A stretch of 63,981 nucleotides of DNA, filler included, from an uncultured bacterium (GTDB lineage Bacteria > CAYJOG01), in NCBI GenBank assembly GCA_964371695.1. It is 5 parts of 5 records of this genome, joined end to end, with 100 filler letters (N's around TTAATTAATTAA, not from the genome) between each part and the next. Parts side by side here need not be neighbours in the genome. Positions count along the whole stretch, not along the records: positions 13,303 to 26,471 come from CAYJOG010000034.1; 4 more parts are not named here. The stretch is one strand, 5' to 3'. Below, one piece after another: positions 3,434-59,181 of the stretch. Numbering within the stretch: position 1 is the first letter of the stretch; the number at the start of each line of letters is the position of its first letter. The translations under genes were made by a program, and so were the position numbers. Below the pieces are notes generated by a model that was not told the DNA's origin, did not search any database, and saw nothing but the letters and a program-made list of their open reading frames with translations.

Positions 3434-4438
3434 TTAATGACGGGTCAAAAACATGTCAATGGCCTTTACGGCCCAGGGGGGAAGTTCCTGAAGTTTGGCC
3501 CGGCGGGCCTCGCGGGCGGCGGCAAAAATCTCTCCCAGAGACCGCTGGGGCGCATAACCCGTGGTTTCGCGCAACAGGCCGTCGTCTACCGTGCAGGGAT
3601 ATTTCAGAAAATCCAGGCTGGTGGGGGGGAAAGGAAACACATGGCGGCGAAAAAGAGACCCCACTGCCTGGCGCAGGGGGGTCTCTGGCAGCGCCAGGGG
3701 CACGGCCCCGCATTCCCGCACCGCCACCGAAAGCGGCACGGCTCCTGGCCCCGACACGTTGAACACCCCCCGCACGCCGGGCTTGAGGGTGGCGGCCACG
3801 GCGGCGCTCAGGTCTTCTTCGTGCAGAAACTGGCACATGGGGTCAAACCCCAGGGGCGTGACCACCACGGGGCTGAGCAAAAACTGGCCAATGGCGCTGT
3901 GAACATGGGTGCCCAGGGTGTTCACAGGCCGCAAAATCACGGTTTCGAGCTGGGGGTATTTCCACAGATACATGCTGGCCAGTGAGTCCACCTCTACCAG
4001 ATCGCGAATATAGGGATTGGTGCGGGCGGCGTTCAGCGGGGCGGTTTCGTCCATGTAAAGCGGGTTTTCCGCAAAAGCGCCATACACATAGCTGCTTGAG
4101 AAAATGATCATCTTTTTCACGCCATGGTTGATGCAGAGGTCCAGCAGGCGGCGGGTGCCCTCCACATTCACGCGGTGGCGGGTGGCCGAATCGGTGCGAA
4201 AATGCCGCACCTGCGCCAAGTGAATCACCGCGTCGGGCCGCACGGCCCGCACCTGGTTTTCGCCCTTGCGACTCATGATGTCCGCCAGGTGAAAATGCAC
4301 GTCAGGCAACGGCTCGGCGGGCGTGGCGCGGTCAAAACCATGCACCTCGAAGTCATCCTTGAGCAGGGCCGACAACAGACGCCCCTGGCCTCCGCTGACA
4401 CCGGTGATCAGCAGGCGAGGTTTGGCGGCGGCGGGCAT
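3434..4438 (-). CDS. NAD-dependent epimerase/dehydratase (extended SDR)
   Basis: LLITGVSGGQG Rossmann motif, VIHLA, NVEGT, FSSSYVYG. Confidence 0.88.
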   Translation of the reverse strand: MPAAAKPRLLITGVSGGQGRLLSALLKDDFEVHGFDRATPAEPLPDVHFHLADIMSRKGENQVRAVRPDAVIHLAQVRHFRTDSATRHRVNVEGTRRLLDLCINHGVKKMIIFSSSYVYGAFAENPLYMDETAPLNAARTNPYIRDLVEVDSLASMYLWKYPQLETVILRPVNTLGTHVHSAIGQFLLSPVVVTPLGFDPMCQFLHEEDLSAAVAATLKPGVRGVFNVSGPGAVPLSVAVRECGAVPLALPETPLRQAVGSLFRRHVFPFPPTSLDFLKYPCTVDDGLLRETTGYAPQRSLGEIFAAAREARRAKLQELPPWAVKAIDMFLTRH

Positions 4439-13202: not shown

Positions 13203-13302
13203 NNNNNNNNNNNNNNNNNNNNNNNNNNNNNNNNNNNNNNNNNNNNTTAATTAATTAANNNNNNNNNNNNNNNNNNNNNNNNNNNNNNNNNNNNNNNNNN
13301 NN
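13203..13302. other. Artificial contig-join linker
   Basis: N-run, TTAATTAATTAA (stops in all six frames), N-run. Confidence 0.98.
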
Positions 13303-20294: not shown

Positions 20295-20421
20295 GGGCGG
20301 TCTCCTTATAGCGCGGTGCGCGGGCTGGGGATGAAACGACATGATAACGGAAAATGGCGAAAGCCTCTTCAGGCGGCAGGTTGGAGGCTGGCGGTTGGAA
20401 AAGAAAAAAGCCTTCATCGCT

Positions 20422-20612
20422 CCCCCTCTCCCGTGCTTTGCATGGGAGAGGGCAGCCACAGGCTGAGTGATAACGAAACCTGTGGCGGGTGAGGGCGATG
20501 TAAAAAACCACCAAATCAGGTTTTTTGTCTTTTTTTCACGCCCTCACCCGGTTTCCCCGTGGCAAAAGCCACGGGGAAACCACCCTCTCCCAGGCAAAGC
20601 CCGGGAGAGGGA
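20422..20612. repeat. Inverted pair of family C palindromic units
   Basis: CCCTCTCCC..GGGAGAGGG hairpins with GGGTGAGGG / CCCTCACCC. Confidence 0.8.
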
Positions 20613-20643
20613 ACTTTATGCCGCTTTTGTCAAAAACCCCGCC

Positions 20644-22707
20644 TCAGCCGATGATGTCTTTTTTGAGGAACGACATGTAGCTGGCGAAGAAAAACGCCAC
20701 GATAAACACCGCCAGCAGCGCAATGGGCGCGAGCACTTCGTTCAGGCGCTGGTCCATGGCGCGGGGTTTGTATTGGAACACCGGCATGTCGGAGATGTCG
20801 AACTTCTGCTCCTTGAAACCGAAGCTGTTGGTGACGCCCTCTTTGGTGCTGCTGTTGATGCGGTTTTCGATCCAGTTGCGGTAGTCGTCCTGAAAACGGT
20901 TCATGTATTCCCGCAGGTGACGGTCGCGGCCAATGCCCGTGTCGGCCACCTCGGTGGCGGCATAGGTAAAGGCCGAGAGCGGCGAGACAAGGCTCACCAT
21001 CTGCGTCAGCTTGATCTGTTCGTCCAGTTCGCGGCGATAGGCGCGGTCCTGTTCCTCCTGAATGGCGTTGGTGCGGTCGCGCACCTTGGTGAGGGTTTCG
21101 TTGAGGAACTCCTGCAACTTGGCGATGTTGTCCTTGTATTTCTTGAACGCGCCCTTTGCCTCGTTGGCCACTTCGCTCACCACGCCCCCCAGGGCCTCTT
21201 GCGTTTTGGCCTGCATCTGGCTGGCGCTGGTGACAGGTTTGATCTGGTCCACCACATAGGGCGAGGCGTTGGGAATGATGAGCACAAAGATCACCCAGAT
21301 GAACAGCAGCACCGCAATGGCCGTGCTGCTGCGCAGCACCGTCACACTCACGAACAGGCCCACGGAATACATCACCGCGATGTACATGAGCGAAAGCAGA
21401 ATGCACACGCCAAAGGAACTCCAGTCCGCCCCCTGCAGGTTCAGCACCTTGGCCTTCGCCAGCACAAGGATGGCGCTCAGCATCACCCCCACCAGAAAAG
21501 GCAGCAGCAGGCTGATATAGCCGCCTATCCACTTGCCCAGAATCACGAGGTCGCGGGGCACGGAATAACTCAGCAGCAACTTGAGCGTGCCGCCCTCGCG
21601 CTCGCCGGTGACGGCGTCGTAACTGAATATGAACGCCAGCAGGCTCATCACCACGCCCACGATGAAAAGGTAATCCACCATGGGGAACATGTTGGGCGTG
21701 GGGTCAATGTCCATCTCGCCCTGAAAGGCCGGGTTCAGAAAGCTCCACATGCGGGCGCGGCGATCGGGGTTTTTCTCCAGGCCGGTGAAGAATGCCTGGA
21801 GCGTGGTGGGGGGGCGCTCCAGGTTGATGCCTTTCAGCTCCAGGATGTAATAACTGTTCTCGCCCCCCGCGCTGGTGCGGTAACCGCTGGAGTTGGCGTC
21901 GAAACTGTCCTTGCGGGTGGCGTAGTTGTCCAGCAGCACAAAACTGGACAGCGCCATGAGCGCCACGCACATCACCGAGGACACCAAAAACCGGAAGCTC
22001 AGCAGGTGGTTGAGCACCTCTTTGCGCACCAGCGTGGCCAGCATCAGGCCGCTGCTGGCCCCCGGCGTGCGGGGCGGCGGCGTGTAGGGTTTTTCTTCGA
22101 CAGGTTTGAACGCTTTGGCAGGCTTGGGGGGCGCCGTGGGCGCGGGGGCCAGGGGCGCGGGGGCCGCCGCCACGGCCACTGGCGCGGCGGGGGCGGGCGT
22201 GGGCAACGGAGCTGCGGGGGCCAGCACGGCGGGCGCGGGCCGGGGGGCCACCGGCAGCGCCGTGGTGCTCACCGGCGTGCGGGAAAGCCCCTGGGCCGAG
22301 TCGGCAGCCAGGGCGGCATAAACGTATTGCCCCGGCGCGGTGAGCTGGCCCGCTGCGCCCAGTTGGCGGTCCACCTGTTCCAGCAGGTGCGCCATGGCGT
22401 CGGTGTTCTGTTTCAGAAAAAGCGAAAGAGTGGCGGCGCTGGGGCCGTGACTGCCCGTGAGCCAGGCAAAGGGCAACTGCTCGGCGCAGGCCTGGGCCAG
22501 GTGCGTGCTGTCGTTCAGACCCACCCAGCGGCCATAGGCCCACAACTGGGCCAGCAACAGCGGATAGGCCCCCCGCTCGGTGAACAGTTCCGGCGGCAGG
22601 GCAATGCCCCCCAGGCCCACGGCCTCCACTGCGGCGGCCACGGCCCGCACCGGATGCTCCGGTGATATGGCCGCATCGGCCCCCAGGTGGAAAAACCCGC
22701 CGTTCAT
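20644..22707 (-). CDS. ABC-2 type permease with N-terminal transposase-like (DUF772) domain and Pro/Ala linker
   Basis: C-terminal part: KEVLNHLLSFRF, YDAVTGEREGGTLKLLLS, GKWIGG; N-terminus resembles IS1182 transposase N-termini; ATGA overlap with upstream permease. Confidence 0.85.
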   Translation of the reverse strand: MNGGFFHLGADAAISPEHPVRAVAAAVEAVGLGGIALPPELFTERGAYPLLLAQLWAYGRWVGLNDSTHLAQACAEQLPFAWLTGSHGPSAATLSLFLKQNTDAMAHLLEQVDRQLGAAGQLTAPGQYVYAALAADSAQGLSRTPVSTTALPVAPRPAPAVLAPAAPLPTPAPAAPVAVAAAPAPLAPAPTAPPKPAKAFKPVEEKPYTPPPRTPGASSGLMLATLVRKEVLNHLLSFRFLVSSVMCVALMALSSFVLLDNYATRKDSFDANSSGYRTSAGGENSYYILELKGINLERPPTTLQAFFTGLEKNPDRRARMWSFLNPAFQGEMDIDPTPNMFPMVDYLFIVGVVMSLLAFIFSYDAVTGEREGGTLKLLLSYSVPRDLVILGKWIGGYISLLLPFLVGVMLSAILVLAKAKVLNLQGADWSSFGVCILLSLMYIAVMYSVGLFVSVTVLRSSTAIAVLLFIWVIFVLIIPNASPYVVDQIKPVTSASQMQAKTQEALGGVVSEVANEAKGAFKKYKDNIAKLQEFLNETLTKVRDRTNAIQEEQDRAYRRELDEQIKLTQMVSLVSPLSAFTYAATEVADTGIGRDRHLREYMNRFQDDYRNWIENRINSSTKEGVTNSFGFKEQKFDISDMPVFQYKPRAMDQRLNEVLAPIALLAVFIVAFFFASYMSFLKKDIIG

Positions 22708-24104
22708 TTCACGTCGTACCTCATGAACTGCACAAACGCCAGAATGAACGAGAGGATGAGATAACCCGCCAGCACGCCGATTTCCATGGCGCTGTTGTTG
22801 AGGCTGTCTTTGAGCGACATGGCGGTGGGCAGAAAGGGTTTGAGTTTTTCGGTGTCCACGGGGGGCAGGGGCGTGCGGCCCTGATAACGTTCGGGAATCG
22901 TCTCTTTTTTGCCCATGTCGATTTTGGCTTCTTTGGCCATGTCCTTGTAACCGTCGCGGTAAAGCTGGGCCTGAGCGCGCAGGTGCAGATAATCCTGCAC
23001 CCCCGTGCCCGCCATGTTGGTGGCCAGGAACATGTAGGCCGCGCTGGGACTCAGGAGCGAGAAAAATCGGGTCTTGCTGATCTGCTCGCGGATTTTGTTG
23101 CGCTTGATTTCCACCATGGCCCCGAACTTTTCGGAGATGCGTTTCTGCACTTCGTCGTCGCCCCCCAGGCCGCCGCCTTCGCCCGGTTCGCGCCGGGGCT
23201 GGCGATCAAGATTTTTGGCGTATTCCTCTTGCTCTTCCTGCTCAATGGCCATGCGCATGAGCTGCATTTTGCCGCTGCTGGGCACACTCACCTGCTTGGC
23301 GGCCAGGATGGGCGCGATGTTGGGCACCGCCAGCACCATGGCCACCCACACAAACAGGCTGATCATCAGCGTGGTGCCGCTCTGGCCGCTGCTGGTGCTG
23401 ATCAAAAGACCGATGCTGAAAAACACGGCGATGTAAAGCAGCGCCGTGAGATAGAGCATGAACAGGCGCACGGGCAGGTCGCCCGTGAACAGATTGACCC
23501 TGCTCATCATGGCCCCTGTGAGCACCGCCAGCAAAAACGCCACGGTGAACGGCCCCGCCAGACAGACCAGCCCCCCCAGGAACTTGCCCAGCAGCACATT
23601 GGCCTTGCTCACCGGGTTGGTCATCATCAGTTTCAGGGTCTGGTCTTCTTTTTCACCGCTCACGGCGTCAAAGGCGAACAAGAGCGCCAGCAGGCTCAGC
23701 ACGATGTTCACCACATACACAAAATCCGGCGGCGGAAAAAGGCTGAACACCGGGTTGTTGTAGCGGTTGGCCCCCACCTGGGTGCCCATCACCTCGCTCA
23801 GCTCGCTGTAGGTGAGTGCGCGGGTGCGATCCGGCTCGGTGCCAATCGCCAGCACGCTCAGCGGCGAGGGGGGCACCTCCTGCGTGAGGCCAAAGATGGT
23901 GAACTCCTCGCCGCTGGTCATGTTCTCCACGTTGCTCAAGTGGGTTTTGGAAAGCGCCTGATAGGTGTCGTTCTGTTTTTTGTAGTTCAGGCTCATCATG
24001 GCGGTGCTGCTGATGACCAAAAGCAGGAACAACGCCACCGTGACCTGAAAACGGAACTCCAGAAAGTTGTTCCGCACTTCCTTCATGGCGATGACGCCGA
24101 TCAT
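22704..24104 (-). CDS. ABC-2 type transporter permease
   Basis: KEVRNNFLEFRF, FDAVSGEKEDQTLKLMM, GKFLGG; paralog of the downstream permease. Confidence 0.9.
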   Translation of the reverse strand: MIGVIAMKEVRNNFLEFRFQVTVALFLLLVISSTAMMSLNYKKQNDTYQALSKTHLSNVENMTSGEEFTIFGLTQEVPPSPLSVLAIGTEPDRTRALTYSELSEVMGTQVGANRYNNPVFSLFPPPDFVYVVNIVLSLLALLFAFDAVSGEKEDQTLKLMMTNPVSKANVLLGKFLGGLVCLAGPFTVAFLLAVLTGAMMSRVNLFTGDLPVRLFMLYLTALLYIAVFFSIGLLISTSSGQSGTTLMISLFVWVAMVLAVPNIAPILAAKQVSVPSSGKMQLMRMAIEQEEQEEYAKNLDRQPRREPGEGGGLGGDDEVQKRISEKFGAMVEIKRNKIREQISKTRFFSLLSPSAAYMFLATNMAGTGVQDYLHLRAQAQLYRDGYKDMAKEAKIDMGKKETIPERYQGRTPLPPVDTEKLKPFLPTAMSLKDSLNNSAMEIGVLAGYLILSFILAFVQFMRYDVK

Positions 24105-24117
24105 GATTTGAACCCGA

Positions 24118-24858
24118 TCATGACTTGGCGGACACCGTTTTGCCGTGTGTGACGGCGGAATGGATGTAGCGCAGGTAAAGCTCGTTGAGGTCGGCGTGGA
24201 GAAACTCCTCGCGGCTCATGCGTATGACAAAGTTGCCTGCGGCCATGATGCCGATGTTGTCGGAGCAGTCCTTCACGCGGAAGATGTCGTGGGTCACCAT
24301 CATGATGGCCTTGCCTTCGTCGCGCAGTTCCAGCATCAGGCGGATGAACTCGTCGCCGCCCGCCGGGTCCAGGCCGCTGGTGGGTTCGTCCATGAGAATC
24401 ACCGCCGCCTCTTTGAGCATGGCGATGGCGATGCCCACGCGCTGGCGCATGCCCTTGGAGAATGTCTTGACGCGCCGGAGCTGGGCCTCTTGGGCCAGGC
24501 CGGTGCGATAGAGCACGTTGCTGATGTGGTCGCGGCTGTGTTTCTTGCCCGCCAGACGGCTGAAAAACTCGGCGTTCTGGATGGCGTTGAAGTTGCCGTA
24601 GAGCATGACGTTTTCACTCACATAGGCCATGTGCTTTTTGGCCTCCAGCGGGTCTTTGGCCACGTCCACGCCGCACACCCGCACGCTGCCGCTGGTGGGT
24701 TCGGTGAACCCCAGGCACATCATGACGGTGCTGGTTTTGCCCGCCCCGTTGGCCCCCAACATGCTGAACAGCTCACCCGGTCGCACGGTGAGATTCAGAT
24801 GGTCCACGGCCAGGATGCCGCCTTCATATTCTTTGACCAGATCAATGATTTCGAGCAC
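24118..24858 (-). CDS. ABC transporter ATP-binding protein
   Basis: GANGAGKT, FSKGMRQR, MDEPTSGLD, VTHD. Confidence 0.96.
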   Translation of the reverse strand: MLEIIDLVKEYEGGILAVDHLNLTVRPGELFSMLGANGAGKTSTVMMCLGFTEPTSGSVRVCGVDVAKDPLEAKKHMAYVSENVMLYGNFNAIQNAEFFSRLAGKKHSRDHISNVLYRTGLAQEAQLRRVKTFSKGMRQRVGIAIAMLKEAAVILMDEPTSGLDPAGGDEFIRLMLELRDEGKAIMMVTHDIFRVKDCSDNIGIMAAGNFVIRMSREEFLHADLNELYLRYIHSAVTHGKTVSAKS

Positions 24859-26471: not shown

Positions 26472-26571
26472 NNNNNNNNNNNNNNNNNNNNNNNNNNNNN
26501 NNNNNNNNNNNNNNNTTAATTAATTAANNNNNNNNNNNNNNNNNNNNNNNNNNNNNNNNNNNNNNNNNNNN
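26472..26571. other. Artificial contig-join linker
   Basis: N-run/TTAATTAATTAA/N-run. Confidence 0.98.
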
Positions 26572-31011: not shown

Positions 31012-31353
31012 TTATTCCTCTTCCATCCCCAACACGTCCGACAAATCCTGAAACAGCGCCAGTTGCGGGTCCACCACCTGGGCCACCACGGCGTTGTGCA
31101 TGATCTCGATGCCGGGGTCCGCCAGCGCGGACTGGCGGAACTGCTCGCCGAACTGGTCGCGGTCGAGAATCGTCAGCGTGATGTTGAAGTCTCCCTCGGT
31201 GCTGGGGTTGGCCTTGGGCGCACGCCGGTAAGCCTGCCAAGCCTGAATCACGCCCTTCTGCGTCAGGGCGTCCAGATACACCCCGGCCTCGCGGAAAAAA
31301 CTTTTTTGTCCGGCTGGGTTTTTCAGGTTGAACCAGATCTGGTAGTAGTCCGT
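31012..31353 (-). CDS. Small hypothetical protein (DUF6614-like), apparent ACG start
   Basis: Frame of ORF 31012..31281 stays open upstream as (T/M)DYYQIWFNLKNP...; GGAGG lies 5 nt before ACG at 31353. Confidence 0.6.
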   Translation of the reverse strand, partial: TDYYQIWFNLKNPAGQKSFFREAGVYLDALTQKGVIQAWQAYRRAPKANPSTEGDFNITLTILDRDQFGEQFRQSALADPGIEIMHNAVVAQVVDPQLALFQDLSDVLGMEEE

Positions 31354-31522
31354 GGCGGCCTCCGTGGGAGGGCATTTTAGCCACGAAAAACCATTTGCGC
31401 CTCAACCGCGCCCTGGCAAAAAAGACCCCGACGCCCAATTTTTCCCCTTCCATGCCAACTTCATCAGCACGCCTCTACAATGCCTCTCCCTGCGGTTCCC
31501 TCCCGCAAAAGGAATCCTCACC

Positions 31523-34447
31523 ATGCACACCCACATCGTTGTCAAAGGCGCACGCGAACACAACCTCAAAAACCTCACCGTGTCCATTCCCCGCGACCAG
31601 ATGGTGGTCATCACGGGCTTGAGCGGCAGCGGCAAATCGTCTCTGGCGTTCGACACCATTTATGCCGAGGGCCAGCGGCGTTATGTGGAGTCGCTCTCCA
31701 GCTACGCCCGCCAGTTTCTGGGGCTGATGGAAAAACCCGACGTGGACCAGATTGACGGTCTTTCCCCCGCCATCAGCATTGACCAGAAAACCGTGAGCAA
31801 AAACCCCCGCAGCACGGTGGGCACCGTCACGGAGATCTACGACTACCTGCGCCTGCTGTTCGCCCACACCGGCCTGCAGCATTGCCACCAGTGCGACGCG
31901 CTGATTCAGCGCATGAGCGTGCAGGAGATGGTGGACTGGGCCATGACGCATCTGGCCGGACAAAAAGCCATGGTGCTGGCCCCCATGATCCGGGGCCGCA
32001 AGGGCACCTATGAGGCCAACTTCAAGGAATGGGCCACACAGGGTTTTGTGCGGGCGCGCATCAACGGCGAGGTGCGACGGCTGGAAGAAGAAATCAAGCT
32101 CGACCGCTACAAGGCTCACACCATTGATCTGGTGGTGGACCGCCTGGACGTGAGCGCCGAAAACCGCCCCCGGCTGGCCGAGAGCATTGAAAGCGCCCTG
32201 CGTCTCACACAGGGCCGCGTGCTGGTCTGGGGGCCAGAGGCGGGCAAAAAGGGTCTGGAACAGTTGCTCACCGAGGGCGGCGGCGTGTGCCACCAGTGCG
32301 GCGCCAGCGGATTTGAAGAACCGGAGCCGCGGTTTTTCAGCTTCAACAGCCCCTATGGAGCCTGCGGCGTGTGCGATGGCCTGGGCGTGGACCTGACCGT
32401 GGACGAAGACCTGATTGTGCCCGACCCGGAGCTTTCCATCGGCGAAAAATGTTTCGCGCCTTTTTCCAGTTGGGCCAACAGTTATTACCAGGTGATGTTC
32501 AAACGGGCGGCGGCTTCGCTGGGCATTTCCATGCACACCCCCTGGGCCGACATTCCCAAAGCCAAACGCCAGAGTCTGCTTTTTGGTGAAGACGGCGGGC
32601 ATCTCTCGGTGGCGTTCAAAACCGCCATGGGCCGCCGCAGGCAGGTGGTGGTGGCGTTTCACGGCGTCATCCCCATGCTCAGCAAGGCGTATAAAGAGAC
32701 GGACTCCAACGCCGTGCGCGAAGAGCTGGAGCCTTACCTCACCGAAAAAGACTGCCAGGCCTGCGGCGGCGGGCGGCTCAAGCCCCAGCACCTGGCCGTG
32801 CGGGTGGGGGGTGAGAACATGGCCACCCTGTGCGCCATGGCGGTGAAGGACCTGCTGGTGTTTTTTAACGCCCTGCCGGGGCGCTTTGACGAACGCCGTC
32901 AGCGCATTTCGCGGGACATTCTGCGGGAGGTGCAAAGCCGCCTTACGTTTCTCGCGGACGTGGGCCTGGATTACCTCACCCTCAACCGCAAAAGCGCCAC
33001 TTTGAGCGGCGGTGAAACCCAGCGCATACGCCTCGCCAGCCAGTTGGGCAGTGCGCTCACGGGTGTGTTGTATGTGCTGGACGAACCCAGCATTGGCCTG
33101 CACGCCCGCGACAACGCCCGCCTGATTGACACCCTGGTGAAGCTGAGCAACGCGGGCAACAGCGTGTTGGTGGTGGAGCACGACGAAGAGATGATCCGCC
33201 GGGCCGACTGGGTGATTGACCTTGGCCCCGGCGCGGGCGAGCACGGCGGCGAAGTGGTGGCCCAGGGCCTGCCCGCCGAGGTGGAAAAAACCGATGCCAG
33301 CATGACGGGGCGTTACATGCGGGGCGACCTGATGGTGCCCCTGCCCCAGTCCGCACGCCCTGGCACCGGCGAAAAACTCACCGTGGCGGGGGCCAGCCAC
33401 AACAACCTCAAAAACATTGACGTGGGGTTTCCCCTGGGCACCCTCACGGTGGTCACCGGCGTGAGTGGCAGCGGCAAAAGCACACTGGTCAACGACGTGC
33501 TTTTTGAAAACCTGCACCGCTACTTTCGCACCGTGGGGGGCGAGCTGAAAATGCAGCGGGGGGCCACGCTCAGAGGCTGCAAGGCGTTCAAGGGCATTGC
33601 CCACCTCGATCGTTTCATATTGGTAGATCAAAGCCCCATCGGCCGCACGCCCCGCAGCAACCCGGCCACCTATGTCAAGGTGTTCGACCACATCCGCAAC
33701 CTTTTCAGCATGACCAAAGAAGCCAAGATGCGCGGCTGGTTGCCGGGGCGGTTCAGCTTCAACGTCAAGGGCGGCCGCTGCGAAAGCTGCTCTGGCGACG
33801 GCATGAAAAAAATCGAGATGCACTTTTTGCCCGACGTGTACATTCCCTGCGAGGTGTGCCACGGCAAGCGGTTCAACAAAGAGACGCTCACCGTCACCTA
33901 CAAAAACAAAACCATCGCCGACGTGCTGGGCATGAGCGTGTCGCAGGCGCTGGACCACTTCATGGACATTCCGCCCATCACACAACGCCTGAAAACACTC
34001 GAAGACGTGGGGCTGGGATACATTCGCCTGGGCCAGCCCGCCACCACGCTTTCGGGCGGCGAAGCCCAGCGGGTAAAGCTCGCGCTGGAGCTTTCCAAAC
34101 GGGCCACGGGCCGCACGCTCTACATTCTGGATGAACCCACCACGGGCCTGCATTTTGAAGACGTGCGCAAACTGCTGGAGGTGTTGAACCGGCTGGTGGA
34201 TCAAGGCAACACGGTGGTGGTGATTGAGCACAACATGGACGTGATCAAACAGGCGGACTGGCTGGTGGACCTTGGCCCCGAAGGCGGCGCGGGTGGTGGA
34301 CAGGTGGTGTATCAGGGAGAGCGCGACGGCCTGCTGGCTCACACCAAAAGCCACACCGCCGGTTTTCTGCGCCAGCACCTGCAACTGCACCATGGCAAGG
34401 GTGCCCCCAAAACCACGACACGGAGAAAAAAAGCGGCGGGGAAATAG
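31523..34447 (+). CDS. uvrA: Excinuclease ABC subunit A
   Basis: GAREHNLKN, GLSGSGKSSLAFDT, two LSGGE motifs, zinc fingers. Confidence 0.99.
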   Translation: MHTHIVVKGAREHNLKNLTVSIPRDQMVVITGLSGSGKSSLAFDTIYAEGQRRYVESLSSYARQFLGLMEKPDVDQIDGLSPAISIDQKTVSKNPRSTVGTVTEIYDYLRLLFAHTGLQHCHQCDALIQRMSVQEMVDWAMTHLAGQKAMVLAPMIRGRKGTYEANFKEWATQGFVRARINGEVRRLEEEIKLDRYKAHTIDLVVDRLDVSAENRPRLAESIESALRLTQGRVLVWGPEAGKKGLEQLLTEGGGVCHQCGASGFEEPEPRFFSFNSPYGACGVCDGLGVDLTVDEDLIVPDPELSIGEKCFAPFSSWANSYYQVMFKRAAASLGISMHTPWADIPKAKRQSLLFGEDGGHLSVAFKTAMGRRRQVVVAFHGVIPMLSKAYKETDSNAVREELEPYLTEKDCQACGGGRLKPQHLAVRVGGENMATLCAMAVKDLLVFFNALPGRFDERRQRISRDILREVQSRLTFLADVGLDYLTLNRKSATLSGGETQRIRLASQLGSALTGVLYVLDEPSIGLHARDNARLIDTLVKLSNAGNSVLVVEHDEEMIRRADWVIDLGPGAGEHGGEVVAQGLPAEVEKTDASMTGRYMRGDLMVPLPQSARPGTGEKLTVAGASHNNLKNIDVGFPLGTLTVVTGVSGSGKSTLVNDVLFENLHRYFRTVGGELKMQRGATLRGCKAFKGIAHLDRFILVDQSPIGRTPRSNPATYVKVFDHIRNLFSMTKEAKMRGWLPGRFSFNVKGGRCESCSGDGMKKIEMHFLPDVYIPCEVCHGKRFNKETLTVTYKNKTIADVLGMSVSQALDHFMDIPPITQRLKTLEDVGLGYIRLGQPATTLSGGEAQRVKLALELSKRATGRTLYILDEPTTGLHFEDVRKLLEVLNRLVDQGNTVVVIEHNMDVIKQADWLVDLGPEGGAGGGQVVYQGERDGLLAHTKSHTAGFLRQHLQLHHGKGAPKTTTRRKKAAGK

Positions 34448-34469: not shown

Positions 34470-35879
34470 CTACCACAAATGGCCGGTGCCCAGCAGGCTC
34501 ATGGCGTTGCGGGCCAGATAATAAACATCGCGGGGGCTGCGCAGGCGGCGGCTGATGAAACGCCCCACTGTGCGGGGGTTGAGATAAAACCGCCGGTTGG
34601 CCAGGCGATAGAGCCGCTCCAGTTCTTCACGGCTCAGGTTGGGGTGCTCAAAGGCGCGGCGGCCCCCTTCAAAATGCACCTGTTCTTCGTAGAGATCCTC
34701 TGTCACCCGGCCCCCCTGCGACTCGATCACGCGGTTCATGGCGGTGCCCGCAAAGGGCGTGGCGATGAAGAACATGGCCTGATCAATGCCCAGCGAAGCG
34801 GCGTAGGCGATGGTTTTCTCCACCGTGGCGGTGGTGTCGTGAGGCAGGCCCAGCATGAAATAAGCCGTGAGATTGAAGCCGTATTTTTTGGCCCACAACA
34901 CCGTTTGGTGCATTTTTTCAAAATCCAGATTTTTTCGCGTGCCGTTCAGCACGCCTTGATCGGCGCTTTCTATGGCCAGACACAACCAATAAAAACCCGC
35001 CCTTTTCATGAGGGCGAAAAACTCTTCGTCGGTGTTGTCCCCGCGAAACGAATTGGGCAGCGCAAAACGGATGGGCAGATTCAGGCGAATGATGCCCTCC
35101 AATATCGCCTTGGCCCGCGGCAGGTGCCAGTTGAAAATATCGTCCCACACAAAAATTTCCCGCACGCCATATTCATGGTGCAGATATTCGATTTCCGCCA
35201 GCGTGTTCTGAATGGACCGCACACGAAAGCGGTAACCGTGGATGTTCTTGTTGCAGTTGATGCAGGCATAGGGACAGCCCCGGCTGGTCATGATGCCCGA
35301 CAGGGGTGAGCGGCTGCCGTTGTTGAGGTAATACTTGCGGGTGTCCTCGGGGTTCCAATAGGGAAAGGGCAGGTTGTCGAGGTCTTCCAGCCAGGGCCCC
35401 TGGGGGTTTTCAGTCACCTCGCCGTTTTCGCCGCGCCAAGTGAGTGAAGGAATGGCGGCCTGCGCCTCGCCCCGCAGCACGGCCGCAAAAGCCCCTTCGC
35501 CCTCGCCCCGCACCACGGCGTCGCAGTGGCCATCCCGCACCAAACGGGCGGCGTAATCGGTGGCGAAAGGCCCGCCCATGAGCACGGTTTTTTCGGGATG
35601 CTTTTCTTTCAGCAGACGGCCCATCTCTTTGGCAGTGCCAAAGTTGCCCACGTTCACATACAGGCCGATCACGTCGGCCCGCCGGGCTTCTTCCAGCAAC
35701 AGGTCCATGGGGCGGTTTTTGCCGATGAGCGTGTTGCGCCACACATGGGCCTCGCTCTGCCGCCCCAGGGCGTGCAGATAACTCAGGCCCAGATTAGGGG
35801 CGAAGTGGCGTTTCATCACGGTGGGCGGCTCTATCAACACCACCCGCGGGCGGCCCTGCGTGTTGAGCAACGAGGCCAT
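34470..35879 (-). CDS. Cobalamin-binding radical SAM protein
   Basis: PNLGLSYL, MGGPFAT, VVRGEGE, TSRGCPYACINC, DDIF. Confidence 0.92.
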   Translation of the reverse strand: MASLLNTQGRPRVVLIEPPTVMKRHFAPNLGLSYLHALGRQSEAHVWRNTLIGKNRPMDLLLEEARRADVIGLYVNVGNFGTAKEMGRLLKEKHPEKTVLMGGPFATDYAARLVRDGHCDAVVRGEGEGAFAAVLRGEAQAAIPSLTWRGENGEVTENPQGPWLEDLDNLPFPYWNPEDTRKYYLNNGSRSPLSGIMTSRGCPYACINCNKNIHGYRFRVRSIQNTLAEIEYLHHEYGVREIFVWDDIFNWHLPRAKAILEGIIRLNLPIRFALPNSFRGDNTDEEFFALMKRAGFYWLCLAIESADQGVLNGTRKNLDFEKMHQTVLWAKKYGFNLTAYFMLGLPHDTTATVEKTIAYAASLGIDQAMFFIATPFAGTAMNRVIESQGGRVTEDLYEEQVHFEGGRRAFEHPNLSREELERLYRLANRRFYLNPRTVGRFISRRLRSPRDVYYLARNAMSLLGTGHLW

Positions 35880-39649: not shown

Positions 39650-39749
39650 NNNNNNNNNNNNNNNNNNNNNNNNNNNNNNNNNNNNNNNNNNNNTTAATTA
39701 ATTAANNNNNNNNNNNNNNNNNNNNNNNNNNNNNNNNNNNNNNNNNNNN
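39650..39749. other. Artificial contig-join linker
   Basis: N-run/TTAATTAATTAA/N-run. Confidence 0.98.
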
Positions 39750-45613: not shown

Positions 45614-46291
45614 TCAATCCACAAACCGGTATTTGATCAGCGCCCAGAGCGCCTCGAAAGCGTCTTTGATGCCGATTTTTTTGCCTTCTTCATAACCCCG
45701 TCCGTAATACTGAATGGGCACCTCCACCAGGCGCGCCCCCCGCTTGAGCACCTTGGCCGTGATTTCCGGCTCGAAATTGAAGCGGTTGGACTTGATGTCA
45801 ATGCTTTGCAGAAACTCGCGGCGGAACACTTTGTAACCCGTTTCCATGTCGCTGAGGATGGAGTTGTAAAGAATGTTGGTGAGCAGCGTGAGCGACTTGT
45901 TGGCCACGTAATGCAGAAACATGAAGGCCCGGCCACTGCCTTTGAACCGGCTGCCATACACCACGTCGGCCCGCCCCAGCAGCATGGGGCGCAGCAGCAC
46001 TTCAAAATCGCTGGGGTGATATTCCAGGTCGGCGTCCTGAATCAGCACCAGCTCGCCTTTGGCCTCTTTGAACGCCGTGCGCAGGGCGGCCCCCTTGCCC
46101 TGATTTTTTTCGTGCAGCAGCACCTTCACGCGGGGGTCCGTCACGGTGGCCAGGGCCTCTCGCGTGCCGTCGGTGGAGCCGTCGTCCACAACCACCACCT
46201 CTTTGTCAAACGGCGTGTCCAGCACCGCCTGAATCACCTCCAGGATGGTTTTGTGCTCGTTGAACACGGGAATGACGACGGTGAGCAGCAT
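45614..46291 (-). CDS. Glycosyltransferase family 2 (DPM1-like)
   Basis: VVIPVFNE, VDDGSTDGT, NQGKGAAL, IQDADLEY, DMETGYK. Confidence 0.95.
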   Translation of the reverse strand: MLLTVVIPVFNEHKTILEVIQAVLDTPFDKEVVVVDDGSTDGTREALATVTDPRVKVLLHEKNQGKGAALRTAFKEAKGELVLIQDADLEYHPSDFEVLLRPMLLGRADVVYGSRFKGSGRAFMFLHYVANKSLTLLTNILYNSILSDMETGYKVFRREFLQSIDIKSNRFNFEPEITAKVLKRGARLVEVPIQYYGRGYEEGKKIGIKDAFEALWALIKYRFVD

Positions 46292-52388: not shown

Positions 52389-52488
52389 NNNNNNNNNNNN
52401 NNNNNNNNNNNNNNNNNNNNNNNNNNNNNNNNTTAATTAATTAANNNNNNNNNNNNNNNNNNNNNNNNNNNNNNNNNNNNNNNNNNNN
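52389..52488. other. Artificial contig-join linker
   Basis: N-run/TTAATTAATTAA/N-run. Confidence 0.98.
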
Positions 52489-52739: not shown

Positions 52740-55700
52740 TCACGGCGTGACGTAGCGGTTGCTCACCAGCACCAGCGTGGGCTGGTGGCCCATGGCGCCG
52801 ATTTTGTCGAGGATGTCGTTGCGCTTGAGCAGGTCTTCGGGCAGCGGCGCGATGACGAGATAGAGCGTGCGGCCTTTTTCCATGCGGCTGCGGATGAGCG
52901 AGGGAATCTCCTTGGCCAGCAACTGATCCTGCACCTGGGCCGCCATGGCCTGTGTCTCGAAGGTGGCCACCAGGGCCACCACGCGGGGCGTGGTGTCCAT
53001 GGCCTTCACGGGGGCGCTGCGCTGGGTGCTCTGCACCAGCACATCCTGTGGGCGCGTGGCCACCAGGGCGTTGCGGTCGGTGTCGCGCAAAAGTTCGGAC
53101 TTGCTCTCGAAGGTGCTGAACAGGCTGCTTTCGCCATAGAGCCTGCCCCCCACCAGAATGCTGATGACCTTGCCCTGCACGCTCAGCCAGCATTCCCCGG
53201 CGTTGAAGCCCCGCGTGAGGCGGGTCTCGCCCAGTTGGGCCAGCAGGCGGGTGAGTTCCCCCACCTTCACCAGATTGGTGGCGTCCATGGGTTTGCTGTA
53301 TTCAAAAAGAATGCGGTCGTTTTTGGTGATGAGGCCGTTCTGGTCGAGATCCATGTAGCGCAGCGCCACCAGCACGGGGGGCACGTCGCGGGCATAGTCG
53401 CCCTGCACCAGCGCGTCGGCGCCTTCTGCGTTCAGGTTGCCGCCCGTGTCTTTCACCACTTCGCCCCGCAGGGTGAACTTTCCCCTTGGCGCGGCGCTGC
53501 CGGGGGCGCTTTCGGTCACTTCCAGTTTCAGACCCAGGGCGTTTTTTTCGGCCTTCACGCGGGCCTGCTCAAAGCCGCCGGGGCTTGAGAAATATCCCAC
53601 CTTCGCCAGCACTTCCTTCACGGTGCCTTCGGCGGGCACGTCTGCCAGCCAGGTGACTTCTTCGGTGAAATCAAAAAACACCAGGTCGCCCTTGCCGGGG
53701 CCGAACTGGCCGTCTTTGTCTTGCAGCACCACCCGTTTGAGTTTGGGGGGCACGGCGTCTTTGAAACTGCCGCGCACGGGGGCGGGCACGGGGTCGGTCA
53801 GGGTGTTGCCCGCGTCGTCGTCCACGCTGCCGGTTTTGGGAATGAAATGTTGGGGGGTGTCCACGATTTCTTTGGTGTCTTCCTTGAGCAGCACATACAC
53901 CTCGTTGCGCTGCACCAGGGCCTGTGCCCTGGCGGCCAGCGCGGCGGGCGAAAGGCCGGGAAACTCACCCAGCAGCGCCAGAATCTCACCCAGGGGCGCG
54001 GTGCGGGCGATGGCCTTGCTCTTGGCGCCGGTGAGGGGTTCGGAGTATTCCAGCAACAGGGCGTCGCCCTGGCCCAGATCAGGCCGCTGGTTGCCGTCCA
54101 GCAGCGTGACGGACTTGAGTCGGGGGGCGGACTGGTCGTCAAAAGAGCCTTCCACCGGCGCGCCGCCCTCGGTGGCCAGCAGGTTGCGGGCTGCGTCGGC
54201 AAAACTGGTGCGCACGGGGGTGAACTGGCCCTTGGGCGGCTCGGCCATGGCGGGCATGTCGGCAAAGGTCACCACCAGATCATTGCCCCGCATCGCGAGC
54301 GTCACCGCGCCCTCCATGGGGCCCCCAGCGTCGAACTTGCCGATGTAGCGGGTGAACTGGGGCCAGTTCAGGCGGGTTTCGGGCACCAGCAGGCGCACCG
54401 GCTCGTTGAACCGCAGCACCATGCGGTCGCCGGGGCCGATGCCTTTTTGCCGGTCGCCGTCCCGCAGATATACCATCTCCAGCATGGGGGCGCTGCTGTC
54501 GGCCAAGTTGCCCTCTACCAGCACCGAGGCGGTGAGGACAAGGGTGTTGCCCACGGCGTCGCGCACCAGTCCCGGCAGGGGGGTGAAACGCCGGGGCGGC
54601 TCCATGGCGCTGAAGCTGGCTTTGGGCGCGGTGAAGCGCCCCGCCGCCAGCAGCGTGAGTTGCACCTGGCTGCTGCTCAGTGTGAGTTCCGAGGAGGGCG
54701 CGCTCAGCACCGCGCCTTCGGCAAACTGACCCAGCGCCCGCAGCACCGACTCGGCGGAGGTGCCTTTGGGGGGCACGGCGGCCAGTTTCACCGGCTCTGA
54801 AAAAACAAACGTCAGGTGGTCACCGGGGCCGATGCCCGCCGCGCCATCGCCGTCTTTCATCAACACCCGCAGCAGGCGCGGGGCCACGCTGTCGTTCACG
54901 GTGCCTTCGGGGGTGACGGGCGAAACATCTTTGAGCAGGTTGCCCGCTTCGTCGGTGAAGGCCCCCGCTTTGGGCAGAAATCCCCCGCCAAAAGCCATGG
55001 CCGGTTCGCCGCCAATCTGTTTGAGGGTGAGGCTTTTGCTCAGCCAGCCCACTGACACGGTGAAGCGGTCGGTTCCGGTTTCGGTCTCGAACTGCCCCAG
55101 CACTTCCAGGGCGTTTTTCAGCGTCATTTCTTCTTTGAGTTTTTCCCGGTTGGCGTCGTTGTCCACGGCCTCGGAGAACACAAACTGGATGAAGTCGCCG
55201 GTGCCGAAACCCTGGGCGGCGTCGTTGTCCTTGAGTCGCACCGAAACCAGACGCGGCGCGGTGACGTCGTCCAGCGAGCCTTCCAGCACCGCTTTGGCGG
55301 CAGAGGCGTGGTTGCCCGCCATGTCGGTGAGCGAAGGGGCCGCGCTGATTTTGCCCGCCGGGGCCTGGGCGTTTTCGCTCACCGCCCCCTGTGCCAGCGT
55401 GATGACGATTTGTGCGCCCTGCACCGACCACTGGCAGTCGCCGCCGGTGAGGTTGCCCTGCTCGAACAGCGCCACCGCCCGCTGCACCGCGCCGCAGGGG
55501 CCAAGGCCGCCGGGGGTGAGGCCGGGGGCCTTCACCGGCTCGCTGAACACAAACACCAGCCGGTCGCCCGCGCCCACGCCCCGCTGGCCGTCCACGCCCT
55601 TCAGCACCACCTTGAGCAACTGGGGGGCGGTGGTGTCGCCAAAGTGCCCCATCACGGGCACGGTGTCGCGGGCATAAAGGGGGTTGCCCGCTTTGTCCCG

Positions 55701-59106: not shown

Positions 59107-59181
59107 TGGGGCGTAGCCAAGCGGTAAGGCAGCGGGTTTTGGTCCCGCCATTCGTAGGTTCGAGTCCTACCGCCCCAGCCA
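59107..59181 (+). tRNA. tRNA-Gln (anticodon TTG)
   Basis: TGGGGCG/CGCCCCA acceptor stem, AGCCAAGCGGTAAGGC D arm, GCGGG-TTTTGGT-CCCGC anticodon arm, GTTCGAGTC T loop, encoded CCA. Confidence 0.98.

Follow-up and report, generated by a model that had tools for sequence, protein, structure and literature searches.

A candidate domesticated IS1182-type transposase N-terminal domain on an ABC-2 transporter permease

A membrane subunit of an ABC transporter from an uncultured sediment bacterium carries an in-frame N-terminal domain that resembles the first part of IS1182-family transposases. On balance, we favour the view that this extension is a translated and selectively maintained transposase-derived module. 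A piece of an IS1182-family transposase would have been exapted, and its N-terminal helical domain, presumed to be the end-binding head of the ancestral enzyme, would have outlived the DDE part and the IS ends. In an ABC-2 transporter operon, the domain would now be coded in frame where the two permease genes meet. Ribosomes would most likely terminate permease 1 and reinitiate at the ATGA overlap. Permease 2 would then carry an acidic module of ~125 aa, helical and cytoplasmic, tethered by a disordered Pro/Ala stretch of ~75 residues immediately ahead of the permease's first amphipathic helix. The module would act by contact with proteins, either to recruit or to modulate a partner of the transporter in the cytoplasm; we offer this mechanism tentatively and regard it as somewhat unlikely in this form.

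The extended permease gene and its operon

The features of the locus are listed in Table 1. Positions refer to the window, i.e. the whole stretch of DNA that was analysed (63,981 nt, filler included). The ATPase gene lies on the same strand as the permease genes, with an 11-nt gap and, further on, the ATGA overlap. At this overlap the ATG of the extended gene (P0001, 22707-22705) shares nucleotides with the TGA of permease 1 (22706-22704), as the original prediction had read it. The junction leaves no space for an IS left end or a leader. The same prediction had described the second of two paralogous permeases as having ~220 extra N-terminal residues. Indeed, the extension measures 221 aa, and permease 1 (P0002) is paralogous over its whole length to the last 466 aa of P0001, with 29% identity. 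A CHASE2 cyclase is encoded in the neighbourhood of the operon. A promoter and terminator scan returned nothing useful within the extension. The sole match in an Rfam scan of the window was a tRNA at 59107-59178.

Table 1. Coordinates of the operon and of the segments of the extended permease P0001 (positions in the window)
Feature	Positions	Strand	Basis
ABC transporter ATPase subunit, 246 aa, operon gene 1	24118..24858	(-)	PF00005 ABC_tran, E 1.3e-26
Permease 1 (P0002, 466 aa), ABC-2 family, without extension	22704..24104	(-)	PF12679, E 3.9e-32
P0001 whole ORF, 687 aa: transposase-derived domain, linker and permease 2	20644..22707	(-)	
ATGA stop/start overlap, permease 1 / P0001	22704..22707	(-)	Read from sequence
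IS1182/DUF772-type N-terminal helical domain, aa 10-125, acidic, poor in basic residues	22333..22680	(-)	NF033551, PF05598
Relic of catalytic-domain start, aa 125-143; PGQY at DGTK position	22279..22335	(-)	Alignment A2; pLDDT <50
Pro/Ala-rich linker, aa 146-221, predicted disordered	22045..22272	(-)	30% Pro, 28% Ala; coil, pLDDT 26-43
Invariant 20-residue segment FKPVEEKPYTPPPRTPGASS, aa 200-219, closing the otherwise variable linker	22051..22110	(-)	Identical in P0001, P0003, P0274
Internal ATG of Met222, start codon of all other family members	22042..22044	(-)	Invariant Met column
ABC-2 permease body, aa 223-687 and stop, with DUF3526-type helical region	20644..22041	(-)	PF12679 E 8.7e-35; PF12040 E 4e-7

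The permease body is complete. P0001 matched PF12679 with 120.8 bits (cut-off 27.2), and aa 225-685 covered profile positions 2-283 of 283. Its C-terminal 466 aa correspond to a full-length family member, 30-50% identical to 147 relatives, and the predicted structure of this part has pLDDT values mostly of 80-97. The source annotation of these PF12679/DUF3526 permeases reads 'ABC-type transport system involved in multi-copper enzyme maturation, permease subunit'. P0001 resembles them in its full-length permease part and in its operon setting, next to genes for an ATPase and a second permease paralogous to it. Some of them have an insert in the middle of the protein, but the N-terminal domain was absent from 147 of the 148 permease relatives found, P0003 being the one exception to the lack of an N-terminal extension. 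This distribution suggests that the domain is young or rare. ABC-2 permeases have an N-in topology, and no hydrophobic segment was detected in aa 1-233; because of these two points we infer that the module is cytoplasmic.

All other family members start at the position of Met222. In alignment A4 this column is an invariant Met (51/51 sequences), and the equivalent residue is the first one in each of the 10 homologs that were read. This favours an alternative in which the extension is a relic in decay, without function. In this case, an IS1182 copy would have landed at the junction of permeases 1 and 2 and been mostly deleted, leaving either an untranslated spacer or an in-frame translation that is tolerated. 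Open frames are also cheap at ~73% GC, and two other long ORFs overlap the region. We consider such decay possible, though somewhat unlikely. Met222 lacks an initiation signal of its own, as none of the motifs GGAG, GAGG and AGGA is present in the 25 nt upstream, and this speaks against the alternative.

The extension begins with an IS1182-type transposase domain

The first ~125 aa had been proposed to follow the DUF772/InsH N-terminal domain motif by motif. Profile searches confirmed this. PF05598 (DUF772) was matched at aa 49-112 with 23.7 bits for the whole of P0001 and 26.7 bits when aa 1-136 were searched on their own (cut-off 23.1). The DUF772 score is thus marginal, which fits a decaying relic as well, since decay would also give such a score. 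The NCBIfam profile NF033551 (IS1182 transposase) was matched with an E-value of 8.5e-9, with aa 10-122 corresponding only to profile positions 14-134 of 488; the full-length score of 34.8 bits is below the equivalog cut-off of 270. In an exhaustive search, 145 of the 150 matches listed were DUF772 proteins with 26-46% identity, and 55 of these 145 had a DDE domain. The DUF772-linker-TM layout occurred in none of the 145. Four multi-stretch matches (P0124-P0127) were PKD/CHU_C/Kelch repeat proteins and were set aside as spurious. The closest transposases were at most ~45% identical in a search of 1.84 billion representatives.

A close comparison is with IS1182-family DDE transposases such as P0128, P0133 and P0131 (NF033551; PF05598 together with PF01609 DDE_Tnp_1 or PF13751 DDE_Tnp_1_6). 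Their N-terminal ~135 residues align motif by motif with aa 10-143 of P0001, and the residues kept include P19, R21, V27, G59, L70, W82, L83, G85, P89 and F97. P0001 differs from these transposases in lacking the DDE domain, the DGTK motif and inverted repeats; it is acidic in this part and fused to a permease.

Other collections yielded little. A tblastn search of a plasmid collection gave a single match with 35% identity and no annotation, and a sequence-profile search of the PDB a single match with E 0.48. Querying a genome contig collection with P0001 resulted in 77 pattern matches, of which 0 were confirmed. With alignment A1 as query, a metagenome contig collection contained one distant locus only (31% identity). 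The marker UvrA was also searched in the genome contig collection. Its best match was ~57% identical, with matches spread across many phyla, and thus the collection contains no close genome and gives no taxonomic placement.

Catalytic part and IS ends are missing

The original prediction held that the DGTK motif and the DDE domain are gone. At the DGTK position P0001 reads PGQY, and thus the first catalytic Asp is absent. No match to a DDE family (PF01609 or PF13751) was obtained in P0001 or in the alternative frames tested, and two open alternative-frame ORFs across the linker had no Pfam matches. The predicted lack of IS ends was found as well: none of the 21 inverted pairs in 20400-24300 flanks 22045-22707. 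No transposase was present among the 22 other window ORFs scanned. We also considered a 3-nt 'TGA' direct repeat flanking the 663-nt insert (AAATGA|AC ... CC|TGATG) as a target duplication, and rejected it as too short. The loss of the catalytic and basic motifs is what decay would produce. However, no IS end, leader or DDE remnant remains, unlike what passive decay would leave.

The domain has kept its predicted fold and lost its basic surface

The basic residues of the SSR and DHxTIxxFR motifs had been predicted to be replaced, and in the alignment both the RSSRKL and the PDHxTLWRF family motifs are substituted. The domain contains 5 Lys and Arg residues, the fewest in a comparison with 119 homologs (median 15, minimum 8); its net charge is -5 and its pI 5.3. 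Overall, about two-thirds of the basic residues of the family are lost, and therefore the domain probably no longer binds DNA. We then compared the residue classes over 52 family-conserved columns. Structural residues were kept in 21 of 35 cases and charged residues in 2 of 12 (Fisher p = 0.017); the contrast of structural against basic residues alone (2 of 7 basic kept) was not significant (p = 0.21). The more frequent retention of structural positions argues against a functionless relic. So does the confident predicted fold, with AlphaFold pLDDT values of 83-95 across aa 11-120.

Structural comparisons were less informative. The best Foldseek match of the domain model in the PDB had an E-value of 1.5, and the best hit of a wide VIA-align search had a Z of 5.3, which is under the tool's noise level for helical models. 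A likeness to helix-turn-helix domains appeared at the same sub-noise level (DnaA domain IV, Z 4.5-4.9; MarR and PadR, ~Z 4). A predicted complex of the ATPase with aa 8-125 received a score of 0.00 and a mark of 0.32, which speaks neither for nor against contact.

These data bear on a second alternative, a membrane-tethered DNA-binding regulator. The head might link transcription to the state of the transporter, or hold DNA close to the membrane. ToxR and CadC are built in this way, with a DNA-binding domain at the N-terminus and a sensor in the membrane, and a head on a long linker ahead of a membrane protein would fit such an architecture. The ancestral domain was presumably the DNA-binding head of the transposase, and the weak helix-turn-helix likeness points in the same direction. 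Nevertheless, we judge this alternative very unlikely: the low number of basic residues, the net charge, the pI and the replaced family motifs all speak against it, and the structural matches lie beneath the noise.

The reading frame itself resembles that of a gene. The GC content at codon positions 1/2/3 is 0.74/0.50/0.82. A codon model gave a log-likelihood ratio of 81.5 for aa 1-135. As reference, 135-codon chunks of real genes scored 106 at the median and 61.5 at the 5th percentile, and antisense chunks scored 25.1 at the 95th percentile. Gene-like codon usage in frame is a further point against decay.

Alleles retain the domain and vary in the linker

The domain was seen only in two protein clusters that are ~6-8% apart in DNA. 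This very narrow distribution is in favour of a relic. In two diverged groundwater relatives, P0003 and P0274, the fusion is in frame despite several linker indels. P0003 is the product of a 2,676-nt contig and P0274 of a 4,494-nt contig in run X5. The X5 contig is collinear with the window over the 3' end of permease 1 and the entire fused gene; the comparison covers two lineages only. Between positions 22270 and 22797, the X5 contig differs from the window in 42 of 528 nt (~8%). P0274 and P0001 differ in 10 amino acids over aa 1-146, for which 12 or more nucleotide changes are needed. Only 2 of the 91 core residues (aa 16-106) are different, and 8 of 466 in the permease. For random substitutions, 68-73% would be expected to be nonsynonymous. 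From these numbers an omega of ~0.2 was estimated for the domain, by counts and presuming that ~35 of the 42 nucleotide differences lie within it; the synonymous excess is derived from counts, not positions, and loses significance if fewer than ~25 of the 42 fall in the domain. Conservation of the core at the level of the permease, despite ~8% nucleotide divergence, argues against decay. Runs X9 and X10 contained short pieces only, mostly of low identity, and no RNA run was among the 10 runs found to hold the stretch.

The domain had been described as an old transposase domain rather than fresh IS debris. The second part stands: the nearest transposases are distant, the codons are host-like, the fold is kept and the core is conserved across lineages. 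The IS1182-type origin of the N-terminus stands as well. An old age holds in a relative sense, as the domain was seen only in two clusters so close to each other.

As predicted, a Pro/Ala linker follows the domain (Table 1). Fused alleles occur in three lengths (687, 688 and 694 aa). In the X5 contig, changes of -3 nt and +24 nt and a +1/-1 pair that compensates itself all preserve the frame. The linker DNA has repeats with periods of 8 and 10, which are not multiples of 3. The invariant segment at the end of the linker may be a peptide motif, or its nucleotides may be required for the start at Met222.

The expectation that relatives share the fusion holds for P0003 and P0274, and not for P0275, P0276 and P0123, in which the gene is split. 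In P0275 and P0276, codon 205 is a stop and the products are 204 aa long. P0123 has a deletion and a frameshift after aa 169, which results in 212 aa; in the shifted frame the terminal TGA overlaps the ATG of Met222 (cTGATG). The split alleles are on 3 contigs near-identical to the window, and the exact fused protein is recorded on 4. Because of these stop and frameshift alleles the fused state appears not to be strictly maintained, unless they are assembly errors in the 80% GC tract of the linker. The Logan contigs of run X1 do not fully cover this tract. A 'skips 521' joint in the same run, with just 21 nt on one side, was disregarded. Interrupted alleles in three near-identical contigs are in line with a relic, but every interruption lies inside the linker, and the domain ORF is intact in all alleles seen.

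The split alleles raise a third alternative. Domain and linker might form a separate soluble protein of ~200 aa as the functional unit, with the fusion to permease 2 an incidental and reversible read-through. Such a protein might interfere with IS1182 transposases; N-terminal-only transposase derivatives that repress transposition are found in IS1 (InsA) and IS911 (OrfA). The sizes of the three split products fit this, as does the cTGATG of P0123, a neat coupled two-gene layout, and so does the consistently intact domain ORF. We nevertheless hold it to be quite unlikely. Both diverged lineages are fused, with three different linker lengths, and the exact fused form is on more contigs than the split forms. 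Depletion of basic residues speaks against binding to IS ends, and no IS1182 copy was seen in the 64-kb window among the 22 other ORFs scanned.

Discussion

Hosts are well known to reuse transposase parts, both in eukaryotes and, where RNA-guided nucleases are concerned, in prokaryotes. Fusions or derivatives of transposase parts include SETMAR in primates and IS1 InsA, IS911 OrfA and Tn5 Inh in bacteria. To our knowledge, a DDE transposase N-terminal domain within an ordinary bacterial protein has rarely been described, and our literature search found no such host-protein case for DUF772 or IS1182. The TnpB-derived TldR regulators are a further parallel (PMC10705468). In SETMAR, InsA, OrfA, Tn5 Inh and TldR, as in P0001, a transposase part is without transposition activity and resides at a fixed host locus. 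These five have kept nucleic-acid binding or target transposition. P0001 is different in that its transposase part no longer has the basic surface and is joined to a subunit of a membrane transporter.

We return to the favoured reading, a maintained module on permease 2. The event appears to have been caught at an early stage: fused alleles are found alongside split ones, linker length is still changing, and the DNA-binding character of the surface has probably gone already. One may go further and propose that IS1182-type transposase heads have been recruited repeatedly and independently to the inner membrane face, which would imply an unrecognised non-DNA activity, here as a tethered transporter regulator. 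We consider this rather unlikely. If it is true, the domain has a non-DNA activity, for example binding of a conserved cytoplasmic partner, that is exploited by bacteria for the control of membrane machines. If the module is functionless, the locus shows cleanly for how long a relic that is translated may give the impression of being 'selected'. If it is functional, an IS insertion in an operon can yield a new regulatory appendage on a transporter.

The N-terminal domain derives from a transposase

The ABC ATPase gene and the two permease genes form an operon on the minus strand. As originally noted, P0001 is the second of two paralogous permeases (29% identity to permease 1 over the full length of its permease part). 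Its C-terminal 466 residues form a complete ABC-2 permease (PF12679 at 120.8 bits), making it a full member of this family. They are preceded by a 221-residue in-frame extension whose ATG overlaps the TGA of permease 1, read as ATGA at the junction. The proposed likeness of this N-terminus to DUF772/IS1182 transposases was borne out. PF05598 (DUF772) matched aa 49-112 with 23.7 bits in the whole protein and 26.7 bits in aa 1-136 (cut-off 23.1), and positions 14-134 of the 488 in the NCBIfam IS1182 transposase model aligned to aa 10-122 (E 8.5e-9). With aa 1-140 as query, phmmer was run exhaustively against 1.84 billion representatives and yielded 202 matches at E ≤ 1e-3. The best 150 of these comprised 145 DUF772 proteins, P0123 (a fragment from the self-cluster) and four spurious repeat proteins. 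The latter (P0124-P0127) contain PKD, CHU_C and Kelch repeats and were ruled out as transposase relatives. Among the matches listed, all 145 DUF772 proteins were 26-46% identical to the query; DDE_Tnp_1_6 was found in 55, DDE_Tnp_1 in 53 and an ABC-2 domain in none. Nor did any of the 145 have DUF772 followed by a linker and transmembrane segments.

In the alignment, the structural positions P19, R21, V27, G59, L70, W82, L83, G85, P89 and F97 of the family are retained. As predicted, the basic residues of SSR and DHxTIxxFR are replaced (RSSRKL by NDSTHL, PDHxTLWRF by PSAATLSLF), and PGQY stands in place of the DGTK motif. No DDE family was matched by P0001, by the shifted tail of P0123 or by either of the two further open frames spanning the linker. 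The IS ends are likewise missing: none of 21 inverted repeat pairs within 20400-24300 brackets the extension. P0001 thus falls outside the IS1182 transposase family by its lack of a DDE domain, its full-length score and its lack of inverted repeats, and shares only the N-terminal domain with it. Judged by these sequence comparisons, the extension is derived from a transposase, and the original observation holds throughout.

Features discussed in the text
Feature	Position	Strand	Remark
ABC ATPase	24118-24858	-	PF00005, E 1.3e-26
Permease 1 (P0002), 466 aa	22704-24104	-	PF12679
P0001, 687 aa	20644-22707	-	N-terminal extension + ABC-2 permease
Last 20 linker residues	22051-22110	-	FKPVEEKPYTPPPRTPGASS
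CHASE2/cyclase protein, 1,574 aa	15735-20459	-	directly downstream
Palindrome region	20420-20615		intergenic, ~190 nt
Repeated palindrome motif	20424-20452, 20583-20611		CCCTCTCCC...GGGAGAGGG
Perfect palindrome	20550-20581		14-nt arms
UvrA	31352-34447	+	
Genes cited in start survey	3434-4438, 34470-35879, 45614-46291, 52740-58208	-	
Gene starts cited in start survey	5126, 9122, 14202, 25229, 38135	+	
Paired 44-N runs	13203-13302, 26472-26571, 39650-39749, 52389-52488		~every 13.2 kb
10-N runs	14029, 15711, 18292		one inside cyclase gene

The extension is lineage-specific

A search with the permease part of P0001 gave 148 relatives, the best 120 of which were examined as listed; among these only P0003, a fused protein from groundwater, carries an N-terminal extension. 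In the 10 homologs read, the start Met is the counterpart of Met222, where the permease body of P0001 begins, and this column is invariant in a 51-sequence alignment. On these sequence grounds the extension is specific to the P0001 lineage. The domain occurs in two 90% clusters and one 50% cluster only. The homologs read among the permease relatives of 630-690 aa are long because of an insert in the middle of the protein, not an N-terminal one. This subgroup (P0007, P0009, P0014, P0016, P0020, P0027, P0030, P0044) carries ~180 aa within the helical DUF3526 region, containing stretches rich in Ser/Gln and a conserved motif that includes Cys (…GC..W/F…K … QCE…); the insert has no listed Pfam family.

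The extension resembles maintained coding sequence

GC content by codon position in aa 1-135 was 0.74/0.50/0.82, resembling aroC of the same window. A codon model trained on 26 window genes scored this stretch at a log-likelihood ratio of 81.5 in frame 0, compared with a median of 106 for real gene chunks of 135 codons (5th percentile 61.5, n=99) and a best-frame 95th percentile of 25.1 for antisense chunks. AlphaFold2 (33 homologous rows) folded aa 11-120 into a six-helix domain at pLDDT 83-95. Across 52 family-conserved columns, structural residues were kept at 21/35 and charged ones at 2/12 (Fisher p = 0.017); basic residues alone (2/7 kept) gave no significant difference (p = 0.21). The transposase-like sequence starts within ~4 residues of the usual transposase start (profile position 14 = aa 10), directly after the intact permease-1 C-terminus, with neither leader nor IS end between. 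Several independent lines therefore favour maintained coding sequence over debris.

The narrow occurrence of the domain in so few clusters speaks against this reading, as do split forms among cluster members near-identical to the window. P0275 and P0276 (204 aa each) carry the changes A197P and F200L and have codon 205 replaced by a stop, and P0273 is a 466-aa permease called from Met222; the longest contig on record is 8,807 nt for both P0273 and P0275. P0123 (212 aa) switches after aa 169 to what is the +1 linker frame in the window, and its terminal TGA overlaps the ATG of Met222. The exact fused protein is found in 4 contigs on record and split forms in 3. All interruptions lie in the linker, where the Logan contigs of run X1 fail to cover part of an 80% GC tract. 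The split forms may be real alleles or assembly errors in this tract. Codon usage, fold, conserved core and tidy junctions support the claim that the extension is not fresh debris; these forms are evidence to the contrary.

The window derives from sediment metagenomic data; a relative is present in groundwater runs, one of which (X5) has a 4,494-nt contig extending across the P0001 gene. It differs from the window at 89 of 1,560 nt (20644-22203) and 42 of 528 nt (22270-22797). Length changes comprise -3 nt at 22172, a 90-nt stretch in place of 66 nt (+24) and a +1/-1 pair separated by three bases. Each is divisible by three in net length, unlike the linker's own DNA repeats with periods of 8 and 10. 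The product, P0274, has 694 aa, and P0003, from a second relative, has 688 aa. Between P0274 and the window, 10/146 domain residues differ, needing at least 12 nucleotide changes; the domain core (aa 16-106) differs at 2/91, matching the rate of the permease (8/466). Random substitutions in the domain codons would be nonsynonymous in 68-73% of cases. We estimate omega at roughly 0.2 if ~35 of the 42 differences fall in the domain, and the significance of the synonymous excess fades below about 25. The expectation of the same fusion in relatives held in part: it is in frame in P0274 and P0003, but interrupted in P0275, P0276 and P0123.

Location and proposed activity

The anticipated Pro/Ala linker comprises ~75 residues (30% Pro, 28% Ala). 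In the full-length model, aa 139-217 are low-confidence coil and the first permease helix starts at aa 218. ABC-2 permeases have a cytoplasmic N-terminus. Since aa 1-233 also contain no hydrophobic segment, the modelled module is most likely cytoplasmic, on a ~75-residue leash. Aa 10-125 contain 5 Lys+Arg (median 15, minimum 8 in 119 homologs), and the domain has a net charge of -5 and a pI of 5.3. The domain has probably lost the ability to bind DNA, and contact with other proteins is the more likely activity. The last 20 linker residues are identical in three fused alleles, while the remaining linker is scrambled; the P0275/P0276 stop codon lies within these 20 residues. Their invariance may reflect a peptide motif, or nucleotides required for starting at Met222.

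Translation start

SD-like motifs (GGAG/GAGG/AGGA) lie within 25 nt upstream of only 8/27 longest-ORF starts in the window; these starts were assigned mechanically and some may be incorrect. Because Met222 has none within 25 nt, we infer that, in the fused allele, reinitiation at the ATGA overlap probably produces permease 2, which would then carry the extension. No run on record as RNA contains the stretch. A TATAAT-like box was seen by eye 1-12 nt ahead of the start codon of at least nine window genes, with the same reservation on start codons, which suggests many leaderless mRNAs in the host.

Neighbourhood and host

The downstream protein combines CHASE2, interrupted by a large insertion, with a class III adenylate/guanylate cyclase domain. 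From its position next to the transporter genes, it may be a signalling partner of the transporter. Four hairpin-forming palindromes between the P0001 and cyclase genes may be terminators or REP-like elements. In a collection of 185,579 species, each represented by one genome, the best UvrA match is only ~57% identical, with matches scattered over Chloroflexota, Calditrichota, Gemmatimonadota and others; the host seems to be without a close relative in this collection. The N runs resemble masking or scaffolding rather than biological features.

Relation to transposase-domain exaptation

Full-text literature searches turned up no paper describing exaptation of DUF772 or IS1182, nor one on a permease fusion of this kind. 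The portion of the review PMC8700633 considered here does not treat prokaryotic cases. In summary, the extension is a real transposase-derived module, probably maintained, on a transporter subunit. It probably falls within transposase-domain exaptation, a known phenomenon, with a fusion state that is polymorphic.
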